The notes: a model not told the origin generated them from the sequence alone. 64,000 bases of DNA from Escherichia coli (GCF_029227855.1 NZ_CP074356.1); one strand, 5' to 3'; shown: positions 42,375 through 64,000, counted from the first letter of the stretch. Translations and numbers: made by a program.

Positions 42375-43106
42375 TTAAATGCCGAGTGGGAAAATATCAT
42401 GGCCTTGTTCCTGCCAACTGGTAAGTTGCTGCTGTTGGGCAGAGGTTCGATTTTCACCGCACCACACCAGCAATGTACGGCCTTCGAACAGTTCAGGGCG
42501 TAGTTGATTGAGCGAGTGGGCGAGGACATCAATGCGCCATCCTTGTTGACTGGCAATCCAGCCCTCCAGCCACAGACGGGTGGTATCGTGAATATTCCAG
42601 CCAACCACCAGCGCATCTTTACCCTGTTTTTTACGTGCCGAAGCCAGACAAATGGCGATGTAGTTGATCAGTACGCCGTCGAGGATCGCCAGCAGCGCCT
42701 GGAGAGTCGGTTGTTGGCACTGAAGTCGTCGGCGCAGAGGAATAAACAGATGCGTGGTGAGTGTCTGGGCGGGGTAATCCTGACCGCGCTCTTTGATCCA
42801 CGTTCGCAGGCTATGCAGATTGCCGCTTTGCAGGTAAGTCAGTAATGTTTCTTGCTGATCGCGCCAGCCGTTCTGCACATCAACATTTTCATTACTGAGC
42901 AGCATTTTAACTTTGCTGACCTGCACGCCGTTGTCGATCCAGCGTTTGATCTCGCGGATCCGGTCAATATCGGCATCGTTGAACAGCCGATGGCCGCCGT
43001 CTGTCCGTTGCGGTTTCAGCAATCCGTAACGCCTCTGACACGCGCGTAACGTGACAGGGTTAATATCACAAAGCAACGCCACTTCACCAATTGTGTAAAG
43101 CGCCAT
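42375..43106 (-). CDS. mlrA: MerR-family regulator MlrA (curli/csgD activator)
   Basis: 243 aa; N-terminal MerR HTH. Confidence 0.9.
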   Translation of the reverse strand: MALYTIGEVALLCDINPVTLRACQRRYGLLKPQRTDGGHRLFNDADIDRIREIKRWIDNGVQVSKVKMLLSNENVDVQNGWRDQQETLLTYLQSGNLHSLRTWIKERGQDYPAQTLTTHLFIPLRRRLQCQQPTLQALLAILDGVLINYIAICLASARKKQGKDALVVGWNIHDTTRLWLEGWIASQQGWRIDVLAHSLNQLRPELFEGRTLLVWCGENRTSAQQQQLTSWQEQGHDIFPLGI

Positions 43107-46287: not shown

Positions 46288-46749
46288 TTATTTCACTTCT
46301 TTAAAACCAGCGGCTTTCATCACCAGTTCCATTTGCGCCATAGTGATACCTTTTTTGGCATCTTCAGCAGAAACGTTGATTCCTGAAATACCCTGCAGGG
46401 CTTTGAAATCCACTTTTTCCATATCGATAGTCACGTTTTCCTGCGCGTAAGTATCGGTATAGGTTAATTTTTCTTCAACACCCGCGATGTTTTTGTATTT
46501 GGCGCTTAACGGCTCAAGTGTCTTGGCAGCGTCTTCTTTGGTGGTTGCACCAATGGAGGCAAATTGAATTTTGGTTTCAGAAGATTGCTTAAGCACCTTG
46601 TCACCTTTGTAGACATAGGTAATGGCAATTTCAGTACCGTTCAGATTGGCGCTGAATTTTTTCGATTCTTCTTTGTCACCGCAGCCAGCAAGAGAGAAAA
46701 CCAGAACAGATGCAACAACGAGGGAAAACAGCTTATTGAAAGCCTTCAT
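46288..46749 (-). CDS. yehR: DUF1307 lipoprotein YehR
   Basis: ORF trimmed to MKAFNKLFSL..; lipobox LAGC. Confidence 0.8.
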   Translation of the reverse strand: MKAFNKLFSLVVASVLVFSLAGCGDKEESKKFSANLNGTEIAITYVYKGDKVLKQSSETKIQFASIGATTKEDAAKTLEPLSAKYKNIAGVEEKLTYTDTYAQENVTIDMEKVDFKALQGISGINVSAEDAKKGITMAQMELVMKAAGFKEVK

Positions 46750-46873
46750 GTAAAACTCCATTTTATTTAATCAAGAAACTGGTGACTCTCACCAGGAGCT
46801 ATATAGGATATGCCTAACACCGTGACGTGAGCAGTCCGGAACTGGAGTGGAACTCTTAGTAAAAAGCACTATT

Positions 46874-48874
46874 TCATCCTTGTTGCTGAAGCATGGGGAA
46901 TAATTGTTCGCAAATCAAAACACCGTTATTCATTGCTTCTACCCGTGCCTCGCTTTCTGTATTACGAAATTGTGCCAACACATGTGCCAGCCGATAAAAA
47001 CCGACCGCGGTGAGGTCATTCGCCAGCAACTCTGCCTGACCAATAGCACTCTGTTCCTGATAGCGCCAGCCGTTATGGAGCAGTTGAATAAGTAACGCCT
47101 GGCAGCGCATCAGCAACTGATGAGCGGTAGACGGCACAGGCAAAACGCTGGCAGAAGGTAGCGGTGCCACAGGCGCAGTTTCTGCGTCCAGCGCCCAGGC
47201 GCGGGTTTTTGTCATCATCACCCGTGGTTCCAGTGTCAATTGCCCCTCTACAAAGCTGACAAAGCCAGAAACCAGACTCACGGGGTCGTCTGTTTGTTGC
47301 AAAAGCGCCGCCATGCGTTCAACGGCAAAAGGAGAACAGGCAGATGCGGGAAGGGATAACGTCAGCAGATTATCTTCACCTTCGCCGCTGATTACCTGCG
47401 CATCCAGCGTCTGGCGGCTGCTATCCCAACCGAGTGAAATACACTCAGCGACTGGCAGAATAAATAAGTTATCCACCTGATTAAGAGGCCGTATGCAGGC
47501 GGGGGGACGCTGGCGTAAATATTCCCGCAAAGCCACAATGCCCGGCTGGCGCAATGGCGCGCTCAACATTTGCCAGGCATCAGGCGACAGCGGCACAACG
47601 CTGCTTAAGCGGTTGCGGGTAGCTAACAGCAGCTCGCCATCGGCACTGCGTTTTGCTGCTTGTGAAACAATTTGCCCGCCCGCCAGTGCGCCAGCCTGAA
47701 AACTAAACAGCCGACGCGTAGCTGCCGGTGAGTTTTCCTGTTCACTTCGCGGCCAACTGCGCGAAAGGTGCAAAATACTGCCGGTGTCGGGATCGGTAAA
47801 CCAGATGCGTAAACCATAATGCTCAATATCCTGCCAGCAACGCATACCTAAAGACACCAGCCGCAGATGATCAAGCTTTGCTTCTCCGGCAATGCCAGAG
47901 CCAACGACCGTGCGCCACGGCACAGGAGGAACTTCACCAACACTGTCGCGCCGGGTCATCTCTTGCGCGCAATTTAATCGACTGTTTAATGCCGCAAGCT
48001 GACGTAAGCATTCTCCGGCATGATAGTGGCTGGCGCGGGCGTGGAAGGCATCAACGCTGGCGCGCAGTTGCCGTAGCGATTCACTCACCCAGCGCCAGTT
48101 GCAGCGTTCCGCCGCTTGCTGCGCGCGGCTGAAAGCAGCCTCGTAATGAATAAGCGGCTGGCTGATGCCGCCAAGCCATAACGCCTGGCTTAATTGCTGA
48201 ACATATTGACGACACGCGTCCCCCTCATCGTTGGCAAACGGATCGTCAGATGATGTGACGTGTTCGCTGCGCATCTGCCAGATTAAATGAGTAAATTCCG
48301 CTTGCTGCGCTTTGGCCTGGACAAAGGCCTGTACTGCCAGTACGACATGTTCGCAAAGTGTTCCTTCAATACAATCACAGCGAGCGAAACGAATGCTGCT
48401 GCGGGAATAAAAACGTACATCGCTCATCGGTAAGCGGGCAGAGGGAATTTCGCCCGGCGTACAGAACAACTCAATGGTGATGCCTTTAGCGACCAGTGCC
48501 TGTGCGCGTTTGCGGGTGGCATCGGGCAGGGTAGCCAGTTCTTCCAGCCAGATTGCCGGATCCCACTCTTCTTCTTTTTCCGTAGTCTGGGTGGTGGCGC
48601 AAAGTCGCTGATAACTTAAAACCAGCATCACGCGATGGCGGCACATGCCGCTGGCCCCGCAGCTGCACTGAGCCTCTTTCAGTGCCTGACCGTTCGCCAG
48701 CTGGGTACGGACACCGTCACTGAAGGTGGCGATTAAAGCGCCGTTCTCATGGCTGATTTCCGGGACGTTGCCATTTTCCAGTTCTTTAAGGCTGCGCTTA
48801 ACAAAACCGGCATTGCTTAACGCCGTCAAAGCTTGTGGTGTCAGTTCTAATAATTCCGGCCGTAGTGAATTCAT
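46874..48874 (-). CDS. yehQ: SWIM zinc-finger protein YehQ
   Basis: 666-aa ORF; CxC...CxH SWIM-like motifs; start overlaps yehP stop (ATGA). Confidence 0.8.
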   Translation of the reverse strand: MNSLRPELLELTPQALTALSNAGFVKRSLKELENGNVPEISHENGALIATFSDGVRTQLANGQALKEAQCSCGASGMCRHRVMLVLSYQRLCATTQTTEKEEEWDPAIWLEELATLPDATRKRAQALVAKGITIELFCTPGEIPSARLPMSDVRFYSRSSIRFARCDCIEGTLCEHVVLAVQAFVQAKAQQAEFTHLIWQMRSEHVTSSDDPFANDEGDACRQYVQQLSQALWLGGISQPLIHYEAAFSRAQQAAERCNWRWVSESLRQLRASVDAFHARASHYHAGECLRQLAALNSRLNCAQEMTRRDSVGEVPPVPWRTVVGSGIAGEAKLDHLRLVSLGMRCWQDIEHYGLRIWFTDPDTGSILHLSRSWPRSEQENSPAATRRLFSFQAGALAGGQIVSQAAKRSADGELLLATRNRLSSVVPLSPDAWQMLSAPLRQPGIVALREYLRQRPPACIRPLNQVDNLFILPVAECISLGWDSSRQTLDAQVISGEGEDNLLTLSLPASACSPFAVERMAALLQQTDDPVSLVSGFVSFVEGQLTLEPRVMMTKTRAWALDAETAPVAPLPSASVLPVPSTAHQLLMRCQALLIQLLHNGWRYQEQSAIGQAELLANDLTAVGFYRLAHVLAQFRNTESEARVEAMNNGVLICEQLFPMLQQQG

Positions 48875-50007
48875 GACTGAAGATTCTCCGCAAGCCAGGT
48901 CGCCAGTTCGCCCGGCGTCATGGCGGCTATTTGTGCACCGACATTAACCAGTGCCTGGGCCATATCGCGGTCATAGCAAGGTGTTGCGGTGCTATCGAGC
49001 GCCGCCAGTCCCAGCACTTTGACGCCGCTCTGGACACACTTTTTCACCTGATGCGTCAGCAATGATGATGAACCCCCTTCATAGAAATCGCTCACGAGGA
49101 TAATGACGCTTTTCGCTGGTTGTTCAATAAGTTGCCGACCATACTCCACGGCACTGGCGATATTGGTCCCGCCGCCCAGTTGTACTTTCATTAATAACTC
49201 TACTGGATCAGCAACGTCTGCCGTGAGATCAACGACGCTGGTGTCAAACGCCACCAGATGGGTACGAATGCCGGGTAACTGCCATAAACAGGCCGCCATC
49301 ACCGCAGAGTGGATCACCGAATCGACCATCGATCCGCTTTGATCAACCAGTAAGACCAGTTGCCATTGTTCGCTTTGGCGTTTAATGCGGCTGTTAAAGC
49401 GGGGGGATTCGATATACAACTTGTCGTGTTGCGGGTGCCAGTGTTGCAGGTTGGCGCGCAGAGTACTTTTGAAATCAAAGTTTCGCGCCAGTGGAATAAA
49501 TGAGCGGCGACGGCGATCGCGGACACCAGAAAAAGCCTGACGAACTTCCTTTGCCAGTCGCGCCATAATTTCTTCAACTACCTGGCGCACTATCCGGCGG
49601 GCGGCAGCCAGCACTTCGGGATTCATCAGATGTTTGGTGTGCAAAACGGCGCGTAACAGGCTTTCAGAAGGCTGCATACGTTCCAGCACGTCGAGATTCG
49701 TCAGCACATCTTCAATGCCGTAGCGCAGTACGGCATCGCTTTCCAGCCGCTCGATCACCTGTTGCGGAAACAGCGTGTGAATACTGTTGATCCACTCAGG
49801 GGTGGTGAGATTTGAGCCACCTAATCCACCAGAGCGTTCACCACGCTGGAGCCGTTCAGGATCGCGCCCATACAGCCACTCCAGCGCGTGGTCTATCTGC
49901 CGGGCGTTGTCATCCAGCCCACAAAGGGTCGTTTCTGCCGCTTCGCCAAGAATTAATCGCCAGCGTTGTAGCTCACGGGTGGTCAGAAGATCGTTCAGTT
50001 CAGACAT
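48871..50007 (-). CDS. yehP: von Willebrand factor A (VWA) domain protein YehP
   Basis: ORF 48871..50235 trimmed to MSELNDLL.. (378 aa); DxSGS MIDAS-like motif (VDQSGSM). Confidence 0.85.
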   Translation of the reverse strand: MSELNDLLTTRELQRWRLILGEAAETTLCGLDDNARQIDHALEWLYGRDPERLQRGERSGGLGGSNLTTPEWINSIHTLFPQQVIERLESDAVLRYGIEDVLTNLDVLERMQPSESLLRAVLHTKHLMNPEVLAAARRIVRQVVEEIMARLAKEVRQAFSGVRDRRRRSFIPLARNFDFKSTLRANLQHWHPQHDKLYIESPRFNSRIKRQSEQWQLVLLVDQSGSMVDSVIHSAVMAACLWQLPGIRTHLVAFDTSVVDLTADVADPVELLMKVQLGGGTNIASAVEYGRQLIEQPAKSVIILVSDFYEGGSSSLLTHQVKKCVQSGVKVLGLAALDSTATPCYDRDMAQALVNVGAQIAAMTPGELATWLAENLQS

Positions 50008-52231
50008 GGAAAACTCCCCAGTGTTGCAGCGATGCCAGTGCCTGCTGTTCGAGTTGTTGATGATGTGCAATGGCTTGTGGTGGACAATGCAACGGCATTT
50101 GCAGCGCTGAAACGGGAAGCTGTGCGAGCTGGTAATGCTCAAGCACCTGATGCGCCAGCGTCCCGCGTTCTCGTGGTGGTAGCCAGGCCATCGCTGCGCG
50201 TAAATCGGGCAGGGCGTTAATAAAATCGTCGTCACTCAGTTGATTTAAATGACTACTGAAACCGGCGATAAATGCCGGCTGACAGGCCAGTTGATGGCGG
50301 GCCAGCGCCAGCATCGTCAGCGCCGCTTCGGCACTGGCGTTGGGATGTTCCAGACGCATTAGTGCGCCAAGAGCCGCGCTGCGATCCAGCGCCGGGGCAT
50401 GAATCGCCTGACTGCGGCGCTCCAGTAAGGCTACCGCCGCAGAAAGCGAAACGCCGGGTAAATTAACGCCGCTATGTAGATCGCGCAGGATATGGCAAAG
50501 CGCCTGCCAGCTATGCAGGTGAGCGTGAAACTCCTTTTCCTCCGGTCTGCCGTTGGATTCACACAGCCAGAGTGTGCGATCGATAGCCGCGCATAACGTC
50601 GTCTGTAATATCTGCGCGCCTTGCATACCGCTAATTTCATCCAGCCGCCATAAGGCGTATAGCACTTCCAGCGCCTGGCCCATTTCGGCAAACTGATTTT
50701 CCTGGGCGATTAATAATGTAAGTTGCTCCAGTAATTGTTGACTGAAGGACGCCAGACCCGCTAACGCCGCCTGGCTAAGACATGTGGTGATACTGCCGAT
50801 TCCACCCGCGTCCAGCATATCGGCTTCTAATTTATTGCGTGCGGCTTCCTGGAGTGTGGCACCAAAGCAGGCGGCCTCAATCAATGCCGCATGCTGGCTA
50901 AGCGGGCGGGTTAATTTCCAGCGTTCTTCACCGTTGCCTGCAAGTGTCAGTGTGCTTCCCTGCTGGCGTACAATCCCTGGGATCTCCAGTATTACCAGCC
51001 GATGTAACACCTGACTTTGCGCCAGTCCATCGGGGGTAAAGCGATTTAAGGTAAGCTCTGCCGGAAGAGAGATTGTGGTACGTTCCAGTTCGCAGGTGAC
51101 ATCTTTTGGCAGAGGCGGCTGTGGCGTAGAGGGGGCAAGTTTACCGAATCCGCCACCCGCTAATGTGTCTATCAACGTTAGCAGAATCGGATCGGTATCG
51201 GGATGAATAACGCCGCGATAGCTCCACGGCAACGGCGCGTTCAAGGCTTCTTTAATCAGCGAGCCTGCTATGGCATCCAGCCAGTCAGTGCGTAACGGTA
51301 GTGTATGACCGCGCAACTGTGCCAGCGCCATCGCATGCAGATGAGCGGCAGCCATATCAGCGGTAGAAGCGGGCAATTTGTGCTGGCGCAAACGGGTAAG
51401 GATAGTTTTTAGCAGTTGTTCACCGGCCTGCTGTAGGCCCCACTGCCAGCACCAGTTTTGCCAGACCGGGGCAGGCATACCAGAAAGGTATCCTGCCAGC
51501 ACATCAAGGCGCTTTTCACTGTAGGGGGTGAGATAACAACCTGTAACGGCATCTGCCAGCTAGGGCAATTCCGGCGTGTTAATTTCCTGCGTGTATTCGC
51601 GCCACATCTTTGCCAGTGCCGGAGCATGCCAGCCGCCGCAGACGACTAACACGTCGCCATTGTTTTGCTGCATCGCCCATCCAATCCAGCGGGCCATAAA
51701 GGCTTCGCGCTGACGATTGAGGGCATCTCCGGGGGAATCGCCCCGCAGTTGTGCAAAATAGTGCGCCAGCGCAGAGGGTAATGCAGTTTGCTGGCTTTCA
51801 TCTTCGAACAAGTGATCCCACAGGGTGTCGCTGTTATCCATGCGGGTGGCACGCAGCAGTAAGGTCTGGCTGTCATCTTGCGTATCGGGTGATTCGTCTT
51901 CTTCTTCACTCTGCGCCCAGCAAGGCAAATCGATGAAGTAAGTTTGTGCCTGAATACGACGTGCGGCTTGTAGCGCCTGCCACTCCGGCGAAAATTCAGC
52001 AAATGGCGTCCAGGCACCACGCCCGGGGGCTGCACCGTCCTGATACTGGCAATAACTGTAAATAGCTACCGGAAGCTGGTGGGCTAAAAACAGTTCGTCT
52101 ACCCGGTCATTAAAATCAGCCGGGCCTTCAATCAACACGTATCGTGGCCGCTGGCTTTCGATTAACGATTTCACCAGCCGGGCGCAGGCCGGACTATGAT
52201 GCCGGATGCCGACAATTAACGGCTCGCTCAT
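50000..52231 (-). pseudogene. yehM: YehM, interrupted by a single in-frame amber codon
   Basis: ORFs 51560..52399 and 50000..51502 are in the same frame, separated only by TAG at 51560..51562; start MSEPLIVGIRHH at 52231 with GAGGAAAG RBS. Confidence 0.7.
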
Positions 52232-52241
52232 GCATCTTTCC

Positions 52242-53319
52242 TCACGGCAGGCGGTGGCGGGCTTGATAATAAGCCTGCCAGTGAGCTTCTTTATGTGTGG
52301 CGACACGCTGTTCGAAGTAACGGCGCAGACGCGCGCGATCTTCTTCGTTATCTTTAACGATGGTTCCGGCAATACAGTCCACCAGATCGGCTGGCTCACC
52401 TGCGCGATTCGCTAAAAACCAGGCGCGGACGCCCACTGCGTGGGCCACGTTCACGGCTTCAGCGGTGGATATAATTGCCGTCAGAGTATCCATTGACGTT
52501 TTCTTTTCGCCGTTGGCACGCAGATCGCGGAAGGTGCGGACCAGTAACTCCAGTACCGCGTCAGGCACTTTATGCGGAATACCGCTATGGGCCAGCAAAC
52601 GCGCCGAAGCACTGGCGACCAGTTCCAGCTCCTGGGCGAAATCCATAATCGGAAAGACGGTTTCAAAATCGAAGCGACGCTTTAGCGCGGCACTCATCTC
52701 ATTGACGCCGCGATCGCGGGTATTGGCAGTGGCAATAATATTAAAGCCTTCCCGCGCATAGAGCTGACTGGCTTCACCGGTGAGTTCCGGCACCGTCATC
52801 ACCCTGTCAGAAAGCATACCTAACAGACAGTCTTGTACTTCCAGCGGTGTACGCGTTATCTCTTCAAAACGGACGATTTTGCCGTCGCGCATTCCCTGGT
52901 AAAGCGGGGCAGGGACCAGTGCTTCCGTAGACGGACCATGGTTGATAAGCAGGGCGTAGTTCCATTTGATCTTCAGTAGTAGATGCGCCGCCCTGGATGG
53001 TTAACCCGGCATCGCCGCTAATAGCGGTTGCCAGTAATTCAGACAGGAGAGATTTTGCGGTGCCCGGTTCCCCCACCAACATCAAACCGCGCCCGGTGGC
53101 AAGAGTGACTAACATACGTTCGACAGCGGAGGGACTAATCACCACTTTACGGCTAATATTTTGCGCGCTATCGCCAAGGATAAAAGCACGGGCCGCAGGC
53201 AAACTTAACTGCCAACCGGGCGGGCAAGGTGCGTTATCATTTTGTTTTAATTTTGCCAGTTCATCGGCGTATAACACAGCAGCAGGCGGACGCTGCAGAT
53301 GATTATTCTGCGGTGACAT
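52242..53319 (-). pseudogene. yehL: MoxR-type AAA+ ATPase YehL, frameshifted
   Basis: Walker A GEPGTAKS lies in ORF 52864..53385; continuation ([26 protein letters not shown]) is in another frame from about 52965; total span 1078 nt is not a multiple of 3. Confidence 0.7.
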
Positions 53320-53431
53320 ATATTCATCCCTGAAATGTATTAATGAAATAAACGATATTTTACGCGCAATAAATGTTTGGCGCATTAGTTGTTTGAGCGA
53401 AAAATATCTGGAAAGCAGATCACAGTAAATA

Positions 53432-53466
53432 AAAAAACCTGCTGGTGAGGCAGGTTCTTTTATTTA
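53432..53466. terminator. Bidirectional rho-independent terminator
   Basis: aaaaaaa-cctgc-tggtgag-gcagg-ttctttt; A-run and T-run flank the stem, so it works in both orientations. Confidence 0.6.
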
Positions 53467-53513
53467 CTATTTTCAGGCCCAACACCGCAGCCTGTGCAAC
53501 ATCGTGTTCCAAC
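53432..53513 (-). ncRNA. Candidate antisense antitoxin sRNA (OrzO-like)
   Basis: Minus-strand -35 TTGCAA (53548..53543) and -10 TATAAT (53525..53520) put the start near 53513; first 18 nt are complementary to 53662..53679 in the toxin 5' UTR at 17/18; ends at terminator 53432..53466 (about 81 nt). Confidence 0.4.
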
Positions 53514-53751: not shown

Positions 53752-53841
53752 ATGGACACGCTGACACAAAAGTTAACCGTGCTCATTGCCGTACTGGAGC
53801 TATTAGTGGCTCTGTTACGGTTGATTGATTTGTTGAAGTAA
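53752..53841 (+). CDS. zorO: Type I toxin-like small hydrophobic peptide (ZorO-like, 29 aa)
   Basis: AAGGAG RBS at 53741..53746 then MDTLTQKLTVLIAVLELLVALLRLIDLLK; single amphipathic helix like TisB/DinQ-type toxins; not recalled at this position in K-12. Confidence 0.6.
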   Translation: MDTLTQKLTVLIAVLELLVALLRLIDLLK

Positions 53842-53894: not shown

Positions 53895-54215
53895 CTATTT
53901 TTCTATTTCTTGGTTGAATATATTCTGTAGTTCGCGATTAAAAATGGCTATTACCGTTTCTGGTGATTCGCCCCGTAATTTTCGCTCATCAATAAACTCA
54001 TCTCTTATATAAATCAACGCATCATTTATTAGCGGGTCGACATCCTCTCGATCACGTTGATGAAATGTTGGATGTAGCCGGAATCGCTCCAGTCGGTAGA
54101 CGGAACCTGTAAATAATTCAGAGCATTTATGGATCTCAAGTCTGAAGGAAAACGGATCTTCAGGTACAGGGACCTCATAATCGTAAATAGCAACCAGCTC
54201 TTTTTGCACGATCAT
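53895..54215 (-). CDS. yehK: Uncharacterised protein YehK
   Basis: 106-aa ORF downstream of yehI. Confidence 0.65.
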   Translation of the reverse strand: MIVQKELVAIYDYEVPVPEDPFSFRLEIHKCSELFTGSVYRLERFRLHPTFHQRDREDVDPLINDALIYIRDEFIDERKLRGESPETVIAIFNRELQNIFNQEIEK

Positions 54216-54275: not shown

Positions 54276-57200
54276 TTAATGGAAAATGACGTCGGGTGCG
54301 CTTAACGCTTCACTCAAATCAAACACATCAAGTTCGGCAAAAGTGACAGATTTATTGTCACGGTATACATGAAGAGAACGGAAGCTCATTAGCGCTTTGC
54401 TATCAACATTGTAGTGGTTAAAACCGGATGAAAACTTAAGGACCAGCCGGTACTCGCCCAGGTCATAGACAAATGCATTCTCATAGCCTGACTCCCAGCC
54501 TTTGTATCGCATTCCCATAAGTTGCCCAACGGTAGCAGATTTACCTTCCCAGCGATTCAAACTATTACTGGCTGACTCGTCAGGCGTGAGCAGTACTGTG
54601 CGCCGTGCCAATTGGCGAAAAGGCGGCATAATTTCGTAATCGGCAAAAAGCTGTGCAAACTCACTGCGCATTTCTGCTGCCATTTCTAACGGGTGGGCAA
54701 TGCCAATCAGAGCATCGGCAGGCAGGTCAATTGGCTCATCTTGCTCATTGCAGAACTCCCCCTCAGCGGCCACACGAAAGGCGTTGAGTAAACGACGCGG
54801 TTCATTTGCCGGATAAACACCCCATATTAATCGCTGAGTAACCAGACGGGTAAAGGGATGATTAACAAACAGAGAATGAAAATCTGCCAGCGACCAGCGT
54901 CGGGTGGTGCGCAGGGCAGTTTCAAGACGCGGGAGCAGGTTTTTGCTCACCTGAGTGGCATCTTTTTTTAGCCCTTTTAGTCGGGCCAGTGCCTCGGGTG
55001 CTTTCAGTTGATCGTCATCGGCGCGCAACCGGGGAACGCTTTTCTGGCGAACGTTTTGCTGATCAAAGATAACCGGGTTAAGGTTTTCATCGAAGCGAAC
55101 GGTAAATTGCCGTGGACCAAAATCAAAAATCAACGCCTGCGGATCATCAAGACCCAGTGTTGGGACTAATCTGTCCGCTAACTGTTCCTGGCTTAGCCCT
55201 CGATTTTCTGCGACCACCTGAAGAAATTCCGCCGCGTTATCACGTAAGGGGCGGGATTTCGCCCGTTGCGATATATGATGCAGCTGTATCAGTGCCATAT
55301 CATTATTCATCTGAGTAAGTATGTTCAGGCCGCTGACGGCACGGGCAGATTTGCCTTCCTGTGGCCAGGCAAGGATCTGTGTCGTCAGATCCCGTGCCGT
55401 GCTTTCGTCGCCAAAGAGACTTAACGCCAGAAATGCCCAGTTGTCTTTTGCGGGAGCACCAGCTTGTTGCCACGCGGTGAAAAGATCCCAGGCAAAAGCT
55501 GCCAGCGTTTGCGGCTGGCAGAAAGTTTTCAGTTGTTCCAGTCCGCTATAAACGTCCGCCCTGGGTAAAGCGCAGCATTTCGCCGATAATTTCCAGTGCG
55601 TCATCGGTAACAGGCTGATTATTCGTGATAAGGCGCGGCCTGGACCACATTGCCGGCTGCCAGAAATCAGGGGCTTTTGGAATGCGTGTCGGGTAAATCT
55701 CTATTGGACTCTGTTTAAGTAAATGCTCCAGGGCAGGCCATACATCTGTACGCTGCCAGCGGTTTGCCGCGGTTTGCAGCAATTCACCATGTCCCTGTTC
55801 GTAAAGTAAACGTAGGGCAAGTAATGCAGCTTCGCTATTATCGCTGGATTTGGTGAAGACAAGAGGGATAAGTGCAGTAGCCGTATGTTCCGGCCATTGT
55901 AAAATCCACTGGCGAGCCAGATCACGCTGCGCCGCGAAACGTCGCCAGACGCGGGCAACGGGCAGGGCCAGTTCTGTTGCGCCAAAATTTAAAATTAACG
56001 GAAATGTTTCTTTTGGACGATATGAAAAAGCCAACAGCAGACCTGGTAGAGCATCCAATCCGAAGATACTGAGAAAATAGTCCTCACCCGCTAACAGATG
56101 CTTTTTCTCATTGATACGTAGCCAGAAAGTCAAAGCCATCTCACGCGGCAACTGTGCCAATAAATACAGGTTCCAGATACTCTTTTCCCGACGATAGCGT
56201 GAGTAGCTGTCATTTTCCCATATGTTAATTAACACTTCTACGTGACCGCTGCGAAGCGCCTGTTCTGCTAATTGTGCTTCCGGGGAGTTCCAGCCATTCA
56301 GGATCTCTTCAACCCGCCCCTGGTAGTAATGCCACTGAACAATGAGTGAATTGCGTGCAGCATCCAGTTTTCCGGGGAGTATATAATTCAGAAACAGCCA
56401 TACATCATCTCCAAAACCCAGCTCCTGTAGTACAACTCGTCCACTTTTATGTTCCATGCGTTCCGAAAGAGATTCCGTGCTGAAATAACGGGCAGACTCA
56501 GTGGCGGCAAGCCTCTCTCGTTCGCCTGGTTGCCAGTAAACTTGCGGCGTTAATTCGAACGGTGCCAAATCAAGACGTGGAACTGTCATTTTTTTCTTAC
56601 TACGCCACGGTGGTGAAACGAGGATTTCAGGCATTTGGCTGTTATCGGTGCTATCAATAACCGTTTTAGGCGGTGCCGATAAATAACTATTCAGCACTGA
56701 CCGGGCTTGAGTACTTAACCACGGCATCACCTCTTCTGCCAGTTGTGGCTGCGATGCCATCAGCGTTTGTAACAGCGTACGCCAGTATTCATCACGTGCT
56801 TTTTGCTGTGCAGGCAGCTTTTTGTCTTCGATGATTGGATAACCAGGGCGCGTAGGTGGTTCTTTTAGCGCCAGCAGTTCTGCCAGTGCGGCAAGCGTCG
56901 CATGGGGGAAATTTTTACTGTATTTAGCTACACGTTGCAGGCTGGGTTTGTTTTTATCAGCAACTAACAGCAGGGTGCGGATGACCTGCGGATGGTTAAT
57001 TTGTACCAGCAGACTGCCGCAATCTTCTTTATGGGCATACATTGCCAGGCGTGGAACGGCTGCCAGTCCTTGTTCGCGCAAAAGGGCAGCGCAGGCCGCG
57101 TAGCCGAAGTGGTTTTCATGCGACATGTAGCTGGCTTCCCGATCGCTAAATATATCCTGGCTCCAGTAGCGTTCGAGTTTTCTCACCGCTCTGGGGTCAA

Positions 57201-57906
57201 TAGCAACAACTTTTAACCACTCCTTAGAATGAAAATGAGTCCACGGGCATTCAAGGCTTACCAACTCATTGGCGATTTCTGGTTTTTCCGGGAGGATCAG
57301 AGCAATAAAAGGGCGGCGAACTTTGGTTATTCCTGGCAGTGCGGCAATGAGTTTGTCGGCGCAACGCTGCCAGCTGCTTTCCTCTGCCAGAGAGAGATGC
57401 TTACGCAGTCGGAGATCGAATTCGTTATAGGTTTCTGATCGATAACCATAGCCATAATCCTCGTTCTGATACTGCAATGTCACTAGCAGAGGATCACTTT
57501 CATAACATCGTGTAATAAACTGGCGTGCAATCACCACCTCAGTCGCATATTCCAGTCCCTCTTGTTGGACGATTTCGTCGAGCAACTGTTGGCTATCATT
57601 TTGCGCGATACAGGCTAGCGCCGCCATTGTCCGGGCCGGAACTGAGGGTTTGTGTTCGCCAATCAAGTTGATGGCCTGCGTAATGGCCGACTGCCACTCC
57701 AGTGAAAAATTTTCATAACGCCAGACAATGTTTTTTTTCTTCTCAGCTTTTTGTAGCAATTCATCACCCAGTGTCTGGATGAGGCTTTCAGTGATAACAG
57801 GCACCGGTTCGCCCGGCCAACTGCGATGGCTGAGCGGCGTTTTGCCTTTTTTATATTTCAGTTCCACTTGGGCGTTATCCGCCAGCCACGGTAATTCCTT
57901 GTCCAT
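54276..57906 (-). pseudogene. yehI: YehI (DUF4132 family giant protein), frameshifted
   Basis: ORF 55546..57906 (786 aa) and ORF 54276..55604 (442 aa) overlap in different frames; together they align end-to-end with the intact neighbouring paralogue. Confidence 0.65.
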
Positions 57907-57915
57907 GCTCTTTCC

Positions 57916-60900
57916 TTATTCAAACAGGGCTTCAATATCGTTAATGAGTTCGCTGGCGGTGATGTCGTCGAGCACGGAGAACTGCGCTTCCTGAGTTGAA
58001 TTACTCCCCCAGCCATAGCTTTCCGCTTTGCCTTCCCATAGCCACAGCTTGCTTAAGACCTGCTCAGCGCTAAGATCGGCTGGTGACATACCCACCGCAA
58101 AACCTTCGTCGATTTCCATGATTAACGACCAGCGACCGAGAGGTTTGATCATCCATCCGATCCAGCCTCCATCCTGTGGTTCGCCCTTTATCCAGCCTTT
58201 ATTTGCCAGCCCCATGACCCGGCCGCTCGGGCATTTTCTGCCTGCCCAGCGGGTCAGTTCGCTGGCGTTGCGCTCGGCTTCTGTCAGGGCGTAACTGTTA
58301 CGTTCAAGCTGACGGAACGGTGGTAGCAGTTCGTAGTCGGCAAAAAGCTGACCAAAGGCGACAGCATCCGTCGGTGATATTTCCAGAACGTGAGGAATGC
58401 CAACAGAGATATCGCCTTCCTGCAAGGTGAAAAGATCATCGTCAGCGGTGCTGTAGCTGTTATCTTCCGCCACCCTAAAGCACGCCTGTAGCTGGTTTTC
58501 GGCGCTATAAACGCCCCAAATCAGACGGCGGGTTAAGTGACGAACCAGCGGATGCTCAACCAGGAAGAGCTGAAAGTTTTCCGGCGACCAGCGGCGGCGC
58601 AGGCACATGGCGGATTCCAGCCTTGCTACCTGCTGGGCGGCGACGGTACGCGCATCTTTTTTCAGCAATTTGTAGCGGTTAACAGCATCGTTTGCCTGTG
58701 ATTCATCATCGCTTTTATTGGGTTTAGGTAAGTCTTTCAGGCGGCTGCCGGAAACATCGCGCACAAACGGTTTTAAGGTTTCATCAAAGCTGACGGTGAA
58801 CTGCCGTGGGCCAAAATCCAGCAGCAGCGAACCGTTATCATCCAGACCGAGAGCCGGTGCTAACCGATCTTCAAGCTCCGCTACCGTCAGTTCGCGACTT
58901 TCGGCAATGTCGGCAATTTTCTCTTTCGCCCGCTCCTGTAATGCTTTGAATTTCAGTTTCTGGGCAATGCCGTTAAGCTGCATCAGGGCGATATCACTAC
59001 TGATAGCGGCGAGGATATCCAGCCCGACGGTGGCGCGTTTATGCTGGGATTCACCAGGCCAGGCGCGTATTAATGGCGTCAGTTTGCGGGCGGTGTTATC
59101 GTTACCGAGAACGCCTAACGCAGTGAACGCCCAACTCTCTTTCGACGGCGCGCCAGCGGTCTGCCAGGCGGTAAACAGATCCCAGGCAAATTCAGCCAGT
59201 GAGTCGGCGGTACAGGCATCTTTCACCTGCAATAATCCCGGATACAGCGCCTCCTCCTGATGGAAGCGGAGCATTTCACCGAGGTGCTGGAGTGCGCTAT
59301 CGGGCAGTGATTGGGCATTTGCTTTTAATACCGGGCGGGTCCAGATCGATGGCTGATAAAAGGCCGGAAGAGTGGGGATTTTTGTCGGGTGATTATCTAA
59401 GGGATCGAGCGCAAGCATAGCGTTCACCGCATTTGTTACTTCCGGCTGGTTATAACGCCGGGCGATTTCTTGCAGTAATGGTTGATGACCGTTTTCGGTA
59501 AGCATACGCAATGCAGCGCGGGCGTTATCCTGTGCTTCACCGGCTTTGCCGAGCGCCGCAGACAGCAGGCCGGTAATGGCGTGTTCCGGGTATTTCAGCA
59601 GCCAGGTGCGGGCGTCTTGTCGTAGGGTTTTGAGTTTGTTGAAGGCGCGGGCGACGGCAGGTGCCAGCTCACTCGCTGCGAAGTAATTCGTTATGGGCAA
59701 GGCTTCCTGTGGATAGCGTGCAAGTGAGTTTACTAACCCAGGTAATCCTTTGAGTCCAAAATGTAACATGGCGTATTCGGTATCGGTATGCGGAGATAGA
59801 GTAAGGGCATTCCATGCTCTTACTGCTTTCTCCAGCGGCAATGTTGTCAAAATCCCCAAATGCCAATAATGCCCGGTAGGTGAATGAAACACCTTAAATT
59901 CACTTATTAAAGTTGAATAATCTTCATTTAGCCATGCCTCAACTACCGCTTCGGGAGCTTTAATATATGTACCAGCGATCCGTCGTTGAAAACCCATCCT
60001 TGCCAACAGATTGGCAGTACTTTCTTCATGACTAACCGTGATGTGTTTTGAATACCAGATATATTTCGCCAAAAGTTGATTACTGATTTCTTCTGTCAGA
60101 TAACTGATTGGCTCAATACCTAATGGTGCTAAATCAAGCACTGGAATCGGCGATTTTTTCTTTTTCGAAAGCCATGGTGGGGAGACTACTATGGCCGGCA
60201 GTAGATCGGCGCTGGCATGGTTTGAGGGCTGTGTCAGTTGTTGCTGGCATGATTTCAGCACTGCAACTGCGGGTGTCGAAAGCCAGGGAATGACCTGTTC
60301 TGCTAGTGTCGGTTGCGAGATAAGCATCGTCATTAGCATAATGCGCCAACTATTCTCTTCTTTTTGCACTAGAAGTTCCGCCAGTGCTGCCAGTGCTGCG
60401 TGTGGGAACGCAGCGCAGGCTTTCGTCATTCGATCGTGACAGCGTTTAGTATGCCCTGCTACACGTATAAGCAGTGTTAATGCGAACGGATGATTGATAT
60501 GACGCAACACATCGGCGCAGTAGTCACTTGCGACATAGGGAGCAAATCGGGGCAGGGCCGCAACACCTTGCTCCTGTAATACGGTGGCTGACCATATCGC
60601 ACCACAATAGTAATCATCAAAAATGGCATATGGCTCGTGATATTTTTCTAATGAGGCAAGAATGTGCTCATCAGTCGCCACTATTTTTAGCCACTCCAGC
60701 GAGGGTAATTTCTTTTGCCCCAGTAGACGCTGGGCAATTTCATGTGCAATTTCTGGTTTTTCGGGCAATAACAAAGCAATTAATGGTTGCCGCCATTCTG
60801 GAATATGTGGAACTGCGGCAATAAGTTTTTGTGCACATTTTTGCCAGAGAGACTCTTCCGCCAGTGATAAATGTTTACGTAGGCGTAATTCAAAGCTGGA

Positions 60901-61710
60901 ATATTGCTGCAAATAATCAGGTGAAATGCCAGACGACAGGAAAACAATATTATTGTTGACATAATCCCATTCAATAGATATTTGTTGAAGATGTATTATT
61001 ACATCAGTAGCATATTCCAGACCGCCTTCCTGAATAATCTGATCCATAACATCCGCACGCTCTTTATATCTCGTGCAGTGCAGTTCAAGTGCCGCGAGTA
61101 CAGCCATTACCGGTGATGGTAATTTTGTCGTTTTCGGGCTGTTAATCAGATCGATCGCCTGAGCGATGAAGTTTTGCCACTCTAAAGTACAGGCGCTGAA
61201 GTCAAATGTAGCTGTTTTGTTATCCCGTTGCGACACGCCACAGGCTAAGCGACGTAACTGGGTTAATTTATCTACAGGTGTAACAGGATCTCCGGGAAAG
61301 CGGCGATGGCTTAAGGTGGTGGGTACGACTTCAAGCGGAAAAACGACAGCAATATCTTTTGCCAGCCACGGTAAAATAACGTCTGTATTTTTGTCAGCCA
61401 CGTAGAATTCTGGTGTAACTGAGGGCTGTTCCTGAATGATGGTAGAAAAGTCAGATAATTCGAGAGATTTCGTTACCGTTCGAGTATGTTTCGATGTAGC
61501 ATTCTCCGCATGTTCCACATACCCCTTTTTCGTTTTCTCCGCAATCAGCTTGAGTTCCGCTTTTTCCGCCGCCGCAGCATCTGCAAAGCTTTTTACCTGA
61601 CTTTGCCCGTTGGTGCCGACTTTGCCCCAACTGATATTCAGTTCGTTTCCCTGCTGCTCCACCGCCCAGAATTTATGTGATTTTTCGTCCTGATAAATAT
61701 AGGTTTTCAT
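57916..61710 (-). CDS. molR: MolR-like giant protein: N-terminal WGR domain plus DUF4132-type body, intact 1264 aa
   Basis: N-terminus MKTYIYQDEKSHKFWAVEQQGNELNISWGKVG..KKGY is a WGR domain; body paralogous to yehI and to the upstream ORF; conserved C-terminus ITASELINDIEALFE. Confidence 0.65.
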   Translation of the reverse strand: MKTYIYQDEKSHKFWAVEQQGNELNISWGKVGTNGQSQVKSFADAAAAEKAELKLIAEKTKKGYVEHAENATSKHTRTVTKSLELSDFSTIIQEQPSVTPEFYVADKNTDVILPWLAKDIAVVFPLEVVPTTLSHRRFPGDPVTPVDKLTQLRRLACGVSQRDNKTATFDFSACTLEWQNFIAQAIDLINSPKTTKLPSPVMAVLAALELHCTRYKERADVMDQIIQEGGLEYATDVIIHLQQISIEWDYVNNNIVFLSSGISPDYLQQYSSFELRLRKHLSLAEESLWQKCAQKLIAAVPHIPEWRQPLIALLLPEKPEIAHEIAQRLLGQKKLPSLEWLKIVATDEHILASLEKYHEPYAIFDDYYCGAIWSATVLQEQGVAALPRFAPYVASDYCADVLRHINHPFALTLLIRVAGHTKRCHDRMTKACAAFPHAALAALAELLVQKEENSWRIMLMTMLISQPTLAEQVIPWLSTPAVAVLKSCQQQLTQPSNHASADLLPAIVVSPPWLSKKKKSPIPVLDLAPLGIEPISYLTEEISNQLLAKYIWYSKHITVSHEESTANLLARMGFQRRIAGTYIKAPEAVVEAWLNEDYSTLISEFKVFHSPTGHYWHLGILTTLPLEKAVRAWNALTLSPHTDTEYAMLHFGLKGLPGLVNSLARYPQEALPITNYFAASELAPAVARAFNKLKTLRQDARTWLLKYPEHAITGLLSAALGKAGEAQDNARAALRMLTENGHQPLLQEIARRYNQPEVTNAVNAMLALDPLDNHPTKIPTLPAFYQPSIWTRPVLKANAQSLPDSALQHLGEMLRFHQEEALYPGLLQVKDACTADSLAEFAWDLFTAWQTAGAPSKESWAFTALGVLGNDNTARKLTPLIRAWPGESQHKRATVGLDILAAISSDIALMQLNGIAQKLKFKALQERAKEKIADIAESRELTVAELEDRLAPALGLDDNGSLLLDFGPRQFTVSFDETLKPFVRDVSGSRLKDLPKPNKSDDESQANDAVNRYKLLKKDARTVAAQQVARLESAMCLRRRWSPENFQLFLVEHPLVRHLTRRLIWGVYSAENQLQACFRVAEDNSYSTADDDLFTLQEGDISVGIPHVLEISPTDAVAFGQLFADYELLPPFRQLERNSYALTEAERNASELTRWAGRKCPSGRVMGLANKGWIKGEPQDGGWIGWMIKPLGRWSLIMEIDEGFAVGMSPADLSAEQVLSKLWLWEGKAESYGWGSNSTQEAQFSVLDDITASELINDIEALFE

Positions 61711-61722
61711 TGCAAAGTCCTT

Positions 61723-64000
61723 TTAATCAAAAAGTGATTCGATGTCGTTAATGAGTTCGCTGGCGGTGATGGCATCAAGCGCGGAGAACGTGAGCGAGGG
61801 CTGTGTACTGTAGCGTTCCCCTGGTGAAGTGATTTTTACGCTTTCAACAGGTAGCAGGTCGCTATACCCCGTTTCGCCATAAATTAATGAAAAATGTTCT
61901 GTTTCAAGTTCGAGAGCGCCATAAGGGGTAGATTTGCGCATCGCATAGACGCTGCCGCTTTCTTCCAGACGTTGCCAGCCTCGACGTTCCAGCCCGACAA
62001 TGCGCCCGGCCTGGCAAAGACGTCCTTGCCAGCGTATCAATTCATGGGTATCACGTTCATTATCAGTAAGGTGGTAATAACCACGATCGAGTTGGCGAAA
62101 GGGAGGAAGCTTTTCGTAATCAGCATAAATTTGCCCAAATGCAGTGGCGGATTCAGGAGATATTTCCAGCACATGCGGTATACCGATGTTTCCTGCTGGC
62201 AGCGTGAATAACTCATCCTGCGCATCGCTGTAAGTGCTGTCTTCTGCGACCCGGAAGCAGGCGATCAGCGTGTTTTCCTCAGTATATACCCCCCATAACA
62301 CCCGTCGGGTTAAGTGACGTACCAGCGGATGCTCCACCAGAAACAGGCGGAACTGCTCTGCCGTCCAGCGTCTGCGCTGGCACATATCCTGCTCCAGACG
62401 ATCAATCTGCTGGCTGGCAATGGCGTGCACATCTTTCTTCAATTGTTTGAAGAGGTTAACGGAGTCAGTTGCCAGTGTTTGATCATCGCTCTGATTTGGT
62501 TTGGGTAAATCTTTCAGGACTTTGCCGTTTGCATCGTGCACTACAGGTTTTAAGGTTTCGTCAAAACCAACGGTGAATTGACGTGGGCCGAAATCCAGTA
62601 TCAGCGAGCCACTGTTATCAAGCCCTAAATCTGGAGCCAGGCGGTCTTCCAGTTCAGCCATAGTCAGCCCACGGTTTTCAGCAACTATGTTGATTTTCTC
62701 GCGGGCATGTTCCTGTAATGCTTTGAATTTAATTTTTCGCGCGATGCCATTAAGCAGCATTAGCGCAACATCGCTGCCAATATCAGCTAATACATCCAGC
62801 CCGTAAACCGCGCGTTTATGCTGGGATTCACCCGGCCAGGCACGGATAAGCGGGGTTAATTTACGTGCGGTGTCGTCATTGCCTAAAATCCCAAGCGAAG
62901 TAAATGCCCAGTTTTCTTTTGCGGGTGCGCCAGCTTCTGTCCATGCCGTGTAGAGATCCCAGCCAAAGTCAGCCAGTGATTCGTGGGTGAAGGTCTCTTT
63001 GATGGTCGCCAGCCCAGCGTAGGAGGTAATGTCGCGTGGAAAGCTCAACATTGTGCCCAGGTGGCGCATAGCGTCATCTGGCAGAGGCAGGTTGTTACTT
63101 TTAAGCCGTGGTCTGCGCCATAAGGTGAACTGATAAAAGCCGGGCAGTGGGGCGATTTTAGCGGGATATTCTTCCAGCGGATCGCTATCGAACAATGTTG
63201 CCAGCGCAGCTAAAACATCAGGTTGGTTGTATCTCCGGCCGATTTCTTCAATCGTTTCTCGCTGGTTTAATTTCACTAGCAGGCGGAATGCCTGGCGGGC
63301 ATATTCCCGATTTTGGCACGGTTTGCCCAGCGCCAAAGGCAGTAGCCCGGCGGCGGCATGGCGCGGGTTATTTGCCAGCCAATTAATGGCATCCTTGTAA
63401 GCCATTTTTTTCTGTAACCGCTGCGCCATTGGTAAGGCTAGTTCACTGGCCCCAATAAAGAGGGTGAATATCCACAGTCGTTGATGATCTCGTTGCAAGC
63501 AGGTCATAAACGCAGGAATGGCCGTACTACCAAAAACTGCCAGAATCTCTTTCTCACCTGAATATCGCTCCTCAATGATTATTTGGTTGAGAAATGAAAT
63601 CGCCTGTTGTCCCGGTAAGTAACAAAGCGCAGATAGATTCCAGCTTTTGTTGGCATTGTTGTGATATTTCGCAAACTCAGCTTTTAGTGCTGGAAAATCA
63701 AAGCGCAACAAGGCATCAACAGCGCTTTGCGGTATATATTTTTTTTCATGTAAGTCATCTTCGCAATGCAGCCATTCATTAAAACCTAATTGCCAAAGGA
63801 TTTGTTGTTCTGGTGTAAAAGGAATGAAAGATGTCTCCCAGCTTTCTTTTTCAATTAGTGGCAGGTCGGTAAATAAGGTTTGCTGTGATGACTGATATTG
63901 CGCGATTTCACTGAATCTGGATATGTCAGTATGACTGATTAACTCTGTAATTCCTGGCGTGATGTCAGTGACTGCAGGGATGGGAAGCACCGGTAAATCA
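61723..64000 (-). CDS. Third YehI/MolR-family paralogue, 5' end beyond window
   Basis: Frame stays open to the window edge; 755+ aa paralogous to the 57916..61710 product; C-terminus ITASELINDIESLFD. Confidence 0.7.
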   Translation of the reverse strand, partial: DLPVLPIPAVTDITPGITELISHTDISRFSEIAQYQSSQQTLFTDLPLIEKESWETSFIPFTPEQQILWQLGFNEWLHCEDDLHEKKYIPQSAVDALLRFDFPALKAEFAKYHNNANKSWNLSALCYLPGQQAISFLNQIIIEERYSGEKEILAVFGSTAIPAFMTCLQRDHQRLWIFTLFIGASELALPMAQRLQKKMAYKDAINWLANNPRHAAAGLLPLALGKPCQNREYARQAFRLLVKLNQRETIEEIGRRYNQPDVLAALATLFDSDPLEEYPAKIAPLPGFYQFTLWRRPRLKSNNLPLPDDAMRHLGTMLSFPRDITSYAGLATIKETFTHESLADFGWDLYTAWTEAGAPAKENWAFTSLGILGNDDTARKLTPLIRAWPGESQHKRAVYGLDVLADIGSDVALMLLNGIARKIKFKALQEHAREKINIVAENRGLTMAELEDRLAPDLGLDNSGSLILDFGPRQFTVGFDETLKPVVHDANGKVLKDLPKPNQSDDQTLATDSVNLFKQLKKDVHAIASQQIDRLEQDMCQRRRWTAEQFRLFLVEHPLVRHLTRRVLWGVYTEENTLIACFRVAEDSTYSDAQDELFTLPAGNIGIPHVLEISPESATAFGQIYADYEKLPPFRQLDRGYYHLTDNERDTHELIRWQGRLCQAGRIVGLERRGWQRLEESGSVYAMRKSTPYGALELETEHFSLIYGETGYSDLLPVESVKITSPGERYSTQPSLTFSALDAITASELINDIESLFD

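Follow-up and report, generated by a model that had tools for sequence, protein, structure and literature searches.

Several described systems pair an AAA_5-type MoxR ATPase with a protein that has a von Willebrand factor A (VWA) domain and a metal ion-dependent adhesion site (MIDAS). They include RavA-ViaA, CoxD-CoxE, NorQ-NorD and CbbQ-CbbO, and the clients of the Cox, Nor and Cbb pairs are carbon monoxide dehydrogenase, nitric oxide reductase and Rubisco, respectively. MoxR-vWA-beta-propeller ternary systems, which are multi-component operons around a pair of this type, have been proposed to regulate effectors in biological conflicts. E. coli K-12 has two MoxR proteins, and one of these, YehL, is the namesake of a MoxR subfamily, of which seven are recognized (PMC3893208). 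Here we describe yehL and the adjoining genes yehM, yehP and yehQ (yehLMPQ) in a 64,000-nucleotide stretch of E. coli DNA (GCF_029227855.1, NZ_CP074356.1; referred to as the window), in which they occupy positions 46874 to 53319.

We found that the operon in the window is non-functional through real, inherited mutations. We favor, with moderate confidence, the reading that it is a dead copy of a conserved five-component operon whose products form a MoxR-VWA remodeling machine acting on giant DNA-binding proteins. Searches of the literature for the four gene names, for the protein families DUF5682 and DUF4132, and for the combination of MoxR, WGR and SWIM domains returned incidental mentions only and no functional study. 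This agrees with an initial annotation of the same DNA, which had described the function as not established.

Composition and conservation of the operon

We found all four genes on the minus strand at the positions given in the initial annotation. yehL (52242..53319, minus strand) is separated by 10 nucleotides (nt) from yehM (50000..52231, minus strand). yehM overlaps yehP (48871..50007, minus strand) by 8 nt (ATGTCTGA), and yehP overlaps yehQ (46874..48874, minus strand) by 4 nt (ATGA, in which the yehP stop codon lies over the yehQ start codon). yehL, of the YehL subfamily of MoxR AAA+ ATPases, and yehM are pseudogenes. yehP and yehQ are intact open reading frames (ORFs) of 378 and 666 amino acids, as had been claimed.

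The domains assigned to the four proteins in the initial annotation also held. YehL, searched as an intact K-12-like allele, matched Pfam AAA_5 (MoxR/dynein-related; E = 1.9e-33, residues 79-220) and has the Walker A motif GEPGTAKS at residues 83-90. YehP matched VWA_CoxE (PF05762; E = 4.2e-72, residues 151-372), which places it in the same Pfam family as CoxE, and its MIDAS motif DxSxS can be read from the sequence as DQSGS. In E. coli the VWA_CoxE gene is two genes downstream of yehL. Near its N terminus, YehQ carries a pair of SWIM zinc fingers (Pfam SWIM, residues 56-88 and 160-183), and C70, C72, C78 and H80, the residues of a CxCx5CxH finger, were invariant among 18 homologues. A structure model of YehQ (predicted local distance difference test score of 88.8) had helical bundles and a central beta-rich region. 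Foldseek gave weak but coherent matches of this protein to the tandem oligonucleotide/oligosaccharide-binding (OB) DNA binders HIN, RPA70, POT1 and CST, which is weak evidence that the central region resembles tandem OB folds. A PDB sequence search found no match for YehQ or DUF4132; the WGR domain alone was matched (2ra8). NCBIfam models for GvpN, MadB, McrB and cobaltochelatase were matched only far below their cutoffs.

YehM is the large protein of the set and belongs to Pfam DUF5682 (E = 3e-98), with 2,252 relatives among 50%-identity representatives. Modeling suggests that residues 1 to ~240, which have a parallel beta-sheet alpha/beta core, are a TIKI/TraB/ChaN/EreA-type hydrolase domain, and that the remaining ~500 residues are a HEAT-like solenoid. 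G8xxH11, E35, R175/E176 and G199xxH202 did not vary among 25 homologues with identities as low as 28%. Active TIKI enzymes have a His/Glu pair plus a basic residue (PMC6254334), and the invariant His, Glu and basic residues of YehM occur in the order described for these enzymes (PMC6254334). YehM is unlike members of the TIKI/TraB/PrgY/ChaN/erythromycin-esterase superfamily in that it matches neither a Pfam TraB nor a TIKI profile, and in that its putative hydrolase domain is fused to the ~500-residue HEAT-like solenoid and set in a MoxR-VWA operon. In three distant relatives, a full-length YehM is followed by a full-length YehP in a single polypeptide of ~1,120-1,180 amino acids. These proteins are candidate natural fusions, or gene-calling read-throughs, and they argue for direct cooperation of YehM and YehP. 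One further distant protein, likewise a candidate fusion or read-through, joins YehM to part of YehQ.

We found that the operon extends beyond the four genes. YehM matches came from at least 579 GTDB species genomes, and we compared gene order in the 80 best loci (from Gamma- and Betaproteobacteria, Myxococcota and Actinomycetota), in which six-frame ORFs were labeled by phmmer with E. coli queries. In 69 of the 80 loci, one to three giant DUF4132 genes, with or without a WGR domain, were followed on the same strand by genes for YehL, YehM, YehP and YehQ, and seven of the other 11 loci were short contigs. Taken singly, most of the 80 loci had a same-strand DUF4132 gene upstream of YehL, and the VWA_CoxE gene was two genes downstream of YehL in nearly all of them. 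Precomputed Pfam labels for a Serratia fonticola locus gave the same order (WGR plus DUF4132, AAA_5, DUF5682, VWA_CoxE and a 684-amino acid protein). No other gene family was conserved in the flanks of the 80 loci; the best candidate was present in seven, reflecting genus-level synteny. The initial annotation had treated the giant paralogues as an array that merely adjoins yehLMPQ. This view was not borne out: because the array precedes YehL-YehM-YehP-YehQ on the same strand in 69/80 loci, from three phyla, we count it as the fifth component of the system. Judged by gene order, the unit is a five-part operon conserved across bacterial phyla and extending beyond 53319, of which yehLMPQ is the downstream four-fifths.

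The window contains three of the giant genes, all on the minus strand. yehI (54276..57906) encodes a DUF4132 giant without a WGR domain and is frameshifted by a 2-bp deletion. The next gene (57916..61710) is intact and encodes a 1264-amino acid protein with WGR at residues 7-69 and DUF4132 at residues 988-1173; it is 38% identical to YehI. A third paralogue (61723..64000, with an ORF at 61723-63990) runs off the end of the window and is 51% identical to the WGR-DUF4132 giant. Among the 72 loci with a DUF4132 ORF, 47 had WGR in the same ORF, ~1,000 residues upstream of DUF4132.

This arrangement sets the yeh operon apart from the known MoxR-VWA pairs. The ATPase and VWA genes are parted by the gene for YehM, a 759-amino acid protein with a probable TIKI fold and HEAT-like repeats, and the pair is always accompanied by a SWIM protein and giant WGR-DUF4132 proteins. 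Client enzyme genes like those of the Cox, Nor and Cbb systems were not found near the operon in the 80 loci. The operon resembles the beta-propeller ternary systems in having several components around a MoxR-vWA pair. However, the match of YehL to bpMoxR (PF20030) was marginal (E = 0.0024, residues 52-102) compared with its AAA_5 match (1.9e-33), and no beta-propeller or other extra conserved partner appeared in the flanks of the 80 loci, in which no propeller-specific domain search was made. Compared by PADLOC matches, client genes and bpMoxR, no known system matched the yeh operon as a whole.

It is quite improbable, in our estimation, that the operon encodes a chaperone for enzyme maturation or cofactor insertion like CoxD/CoxE, NorQ/NorD, CbbQ/CbbO or RavA/ViaA, with YehM, YehQ and DUF4132 as accessory assembly factors. 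AAA_5 of YehL and VWA_CoxE of YehP are the Pfam families of the CoxD/CoxE pair, two of the weak NCBIfam matches were to GvpN and cobaltochelatase, and the MoxR proteins characterized so far are chaperone-like maturation factors (PMC3893208). Purifying selection on the genes and their chromosomal, non-mobile location also fit such a role. However, no client enzyme genes are conserved beside the operon, and the conserved partners have WGR, SWIM and OB-like modules, as is typical of proteins associated with nucleic acids rather than of factors that assemble metalloenzymes. In addition, the operon has been lost repeatedly in E. coli lineages, with no growth phenotype reported in the literature that we found.

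Lesions in the window copy

We found an 11-bp deletion in yehL (relative to K-12 TCAAGTATGGC) at 52965|52964, within the interval 52960..52985 in which a frameshift had been called. The frame is shifted after codon 118. The deletion is inside the AAA_5 domain, downstream of Walker A, and splits this motif from the rest of the AAA+ core, so that the yehL of the window does not encode an uninterrupted ATPase core from Walker A through sensor 2. In yehM, codon 224 is changed from TCG to TAG at 51560-51562, exactly where an in-frame TAG had been noted. As read from the nucleotide changes, the deletion destroys the YehL ATPase and the amber codon ends YehM just beyond its catalytic-type domain. yehP and yehQ, uncoupled translationally from yehM, should be either poorly expressed or of no use.

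Two further lesions had been missed in the initial annotation. yehM has a 48-bp in-frame deletion at 50314|50313, bounded by a 9-bp direct repeat (TGCTGGCGC). The repeat around the deletion is a signature of slippage. The junction of this deletion was found in only one (strain JNEC-KY178) of 5,426 complete E. coli genomes. In yehI, 2 bp are deleted from a T5 run at ~55553, a lesion seen only in the window strain. Both deletions are later, strain-specific changes, and the one in yehI is the sole lesion that might plausibly be a sequencing error.

We found that the two main lesions are widespread. We searched the 5,426 complete E. coli genomes with 31-mers able to seed a megablast match only where a lesion is present. 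The yehL deletion junction was present in 215 genomes and the yehM TAG in 214, and the strains were identical across the first 40 listed for each. Thus, the lesion haplotype is carried by ~4% of sequenced E. coli. Because the same junctions recur in this many genomes, the yehL and yehM lesions are inherited mutations and not assembly errors. Comparison with intact alleles, which the initial annotation had proposed, indicated that the lesions are derived, as more than 5,000 genomes carry intact yehL and yehM. The Prokaryotic Genome Annotation Pipeline (PGAP) labels yehL "frameshifted" and yehM "internal stop" in a near-identical RefSeq genome. The pseudogenes are ordinary lineage-specific decay, already flagged by PGAP.

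These results bear on the notion that the lesions are sequencing or assembly artefacts, or programmed recoding sites, and that the genes are functional in this strain. The homopolymer location of the yehI deletion in this strain only, and the presence of the 48-bp deletion in one genome only, speak for this notion. On the other hand, the more than 5,000 intact genomes mark the lesions as derived, an 11-bp deletion corresponds to no known recoding signal, and the 508-residue fragment of YehM after the TAG is represented in the protein database by a cluster of 613 members. We consider this explanation extremely improbable overall, and for the two main lesions we reject, on population evidence, both assembly error, the outcome that the initial annotation had named as one that would remove the signal of decay, and programmed recoding.

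Positions 46700-53500 had 100.0% identity, as megablast reports it, to JNEC-KY178 (NZ_AP045174.1). Over 18.8 kb, the window and JNEC-KY178 differed by four single bases (at 43037, 44100, 46098 and 47966), one of which is in yehQ. The window is thus not byte-identical to JNEC-KY178, and represents either a different version of that genome or a strain very closely related to it.

Variation, flanks and loss of the locus in E. coli

We found the locus at a fixed site in 5,413 of the 5,426 complete E. coli genomes, with ~95-98% identity, almost always once and on the chromosome. Selection was estimated from five strains with intact yehLMPQ. The ratio of nonsynonymous to synonymous divergence (dN/dS) was 0.03 for yehL, 0.06 for yehP, 0.10 for yehQ and 0.13 for yehM, which indicates that these genes are kept by purifying selection where they are intact. 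The locus is unusually diverse: dS was 0.11-0.17 in yehLMPQ, compared with 0.05-0.08 in btsS, yehR and metG. In the DUF4132 genes, for which pairwise dS reached 0.79, dS was 0.27 for yehI and 0.47 for the next paralogue (mean dN 0.116), whose divergence may come partly from the comparison of non-orthologous copies. Even for DUF4132, dN/dS was below 0.25. The divergence of the DUF4132 family could have arisen by diversifying selection or by recombination that brought in new alleles, or it could stem from comparing non-orthologous copies. There are two or three DUF4132 copies between yehK and metG, depending on the E. coli strain.

We also found that inactivation is recurrent and independent across lineages. 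K-12-like strains have a GAG to TAG change at codon 615 of yehQ and a broken DUF4132 gene (molR). O157:H7 has a different yehM stop and broken DUF4132 genes, O26 has a stop in DUF4132, and strains NN5 and MRSN352231 have yehI frameshifts. In the ST131-type strain p4A, an IS26/CTX-M-15 transposon is inserted in the array (PMC9334617), and S. sonnei lineages 2/3 have a ~7-kb deletion of yehM, yehL and zorO (PMC12795559). Other truncated forms of YehM make up protein clusters of 424 amino acids (1,108 members) and 600 amino acids (385 members). Every gene is intact at least in strain WP4-S18-ESBL-09, and CH4794 is a further example of a strain with an intact operon. The initial annotation had suggested that the cluster is dispensable, and for E. 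coli the independent lesions in K-12, O157:H7, O26, an ST131-type strain and S. sonnei support this suggestion.

The region between yehL and yehI contains yehK and a type I toxin-antitoxin locus, the latter not part of the system. An OrzO antitoxin small RNA of the zorO/orzO type I toxin-antitoxin locus is at 53431..53506 on the minus strand (Rfam RF02083, OrzO-P; 101.3 bits compared with a gathering threshold of 60). A 29-amino acid ZorO-like toxin ORF (MDTLTQKLTVLIAVLELLVALLRLIDLLK, identified by translation) is at 53752..53841 on the plus strand, and the annotated yehK (106 amino acids) is at 53895..54215 on the minus strand. The locus directly upstream of yehL thus has both features of ZorO-OrzO, an OrzO-P RNA and a divergent ORF for a small hydrophobic toxin. 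The ZorO-like ORF was found only in E. coli loci, where the site has zero, one or two copies by strain, and was absent from all loci of other taxa. YehK is at this position in E. coli loci and was found in none of 80 loci from other taxa. By this distribution, zorO/orzO and yehK are E. coli insertions inside an ancestral operon. In other taxa, yehL directly adjoins the DUF4132 gene. The description of yehLMPQ as lying between a type I toxin-antitoxin locus and the giant array was wrong, as the locus and the array are each upstream of yehL; the opposite flank is formed by yehR.

A terminator-like hairpin with a T-run (53436-53456, within OrzO) is ~110 nt upstream of the yehL start on the same strand, and transcription from the DUF4132/yehK side would probably be stopped before yehL by this OrzO terminator. 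In K-12, an hns/stpA mutation relieves the repression of yehL and yehM, indicating silencing by H-NS/StpA (PMC3686432), and the promoter of molR is activated by BglJ-RcsB (PMC3950696). The G+C content is ~55-57% in yehLMPQ, 43-47% in intergenic DNA, yehR and the yehK/toxin-antitoxin region, and ~50% farther out.

Possible functions of the system

In the mechanism that we favor, the YehL hexamer and the YehP MIDAS adaptor would work as other MoxR-VWA pairs do, by ATP-driven gripping and remodeling of a partner. The YehM solenoid would hold these partners, the DUF4132 giants, whose remodeling would license the hydrolase domain of YehM. Through the WGR domain and the SWIM/OB protein, the assembly would be tethered to nucleic acid, be it DNA or another kind. 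In E. coli, this system is silenced and is being lost in one lineage after another. This mechanism is our best guess, and it goes beyond the domain assignments.

Several points count against it. H11, E35, R175 and H202 of YehM are putative TIKI catalytic residues by motif order and not by superposition, and an hmmscan of YehM (E <= 10) gave no Pfam TraB/TIKI match, only DUF5682 and a chance match to CBM46. Even a true TIKI fold may be non-enzymatic, as in ChaN and PMT. Many DUF4132 paralogues, YehI among them, lack WGR, and in 25 of the 72 loci with a DUF4132 ORF the 10-kb flank showed no ORF that combines WGR with DUF4132. DUF4132 had no solved relative in the PDB sequence search and lacks any structural or functional precedent, so that to cast it as "client" or "sensor" is guesswork. 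Finally, no experiment links any component to a substrate or phenotype.

Immunity against phages or other mobile elements is a possible, if doubtful, alternative. Under this hypothesis, the WGR-DUF4132 proteins and YehQ would sense foreign nucleic acid, the MoxR-VWA pair would license the response and YehM would be the effector; the lesions in the window would then represent the usual rapid turnover of defense genes. The patchy distribution across phyla with variable flanks is that of an autonomous module. DUF4132 occurs in one to three tandem copies, their number varies within E. coli, and their dS (0.27-0.47, with dN up to 0.116) is well above that of the flanking genes (0.05-0.08). Silencing by H-NS of a cluster with ~55% G+C amid lower-G+C surroundings, recurrent inactivation, and the existence of TIKI-fold toxins such as RRSP and HopBA1 are also consistent with immunity. 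However, PADLOC-DB v2 gave no matches for YehL, YehM, YehP, YehQ, YehI, WGR-DUF4132 or YehK. Only 39 of 72,556 plasmid records matched, mostly megaplasmids or mislabeled chromosomes, and the phage matches amounted to one weak record. Typical defense systems are not so fixed as a locus shared by 5,413/5,426 E. coli genomes, the neighbors of the Serratia locus are transport and metabolism genes, and dN/dS stays below 0.25 even for DUF4132.

We did find matches to the locus in the PHROGs collection. The small families phrog_29006, 31592, 30700, 33984, 20839, 36602 and 36295 contain exact-length, near-identical YehQ, YehP, YehM, DUF4132 and YehK. The YehM of this collection is split at about residue 509-517, which indicates that it was drawn from a pseudogene. 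These matches do not speak for a phage origin; most likely, they are E. coli chromosomal sequence in mis-delimited prophages.

The initial annotation had also suggested that the cluster might be conflict-related. The lack of PADLOC matches, the near-absence from plasmids and phages, the fixed locus and the strong purifying selection do not support this label, whereas the patchy distribution, the variable flanks, the hypervariable multi-copy DUF4132 genes and the silencing by H-NS would still fit a conflict role. We think it rather unlikely that the operon is, more broadly, a nucleic-acid-sensing immune or stress system, in which DUF4132 and the SWIM/OB protein would sense foreign or damaged DNA and the MoxR-VWA pair would unlock a protease or esterase effector of TIKI type in YehM. 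If this were true, the function would have been overlooked because in K-12 yehQ contains an amber codon and a DUF4132 gene (molR) is disrupted. The standard laboratory strain may be uninformative, given the yehQ amber codon and the broken DUF4132 paralogue of K-12-like strains.

Our results redefine the unit to be studied as five components rather than four, including the DUF4132 giants once misnamed "molybdate regulator". The putative TIKI-type active site of YehM, the MIDAS of YehP, the SWIM and OB-like modules of YehQ and the WGR domain of the DUF4132 protein are testable handles, and the pseudogenes in the window are naturally occurring loss-of-function alleles. E. coli has only two MoxR ATPases; one is YehL, the eponym of one of the seven MoxR subfamilies. 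The new boundaries and domain assignments make this uncharacterized MoxR-VWA system experimentally approachable.

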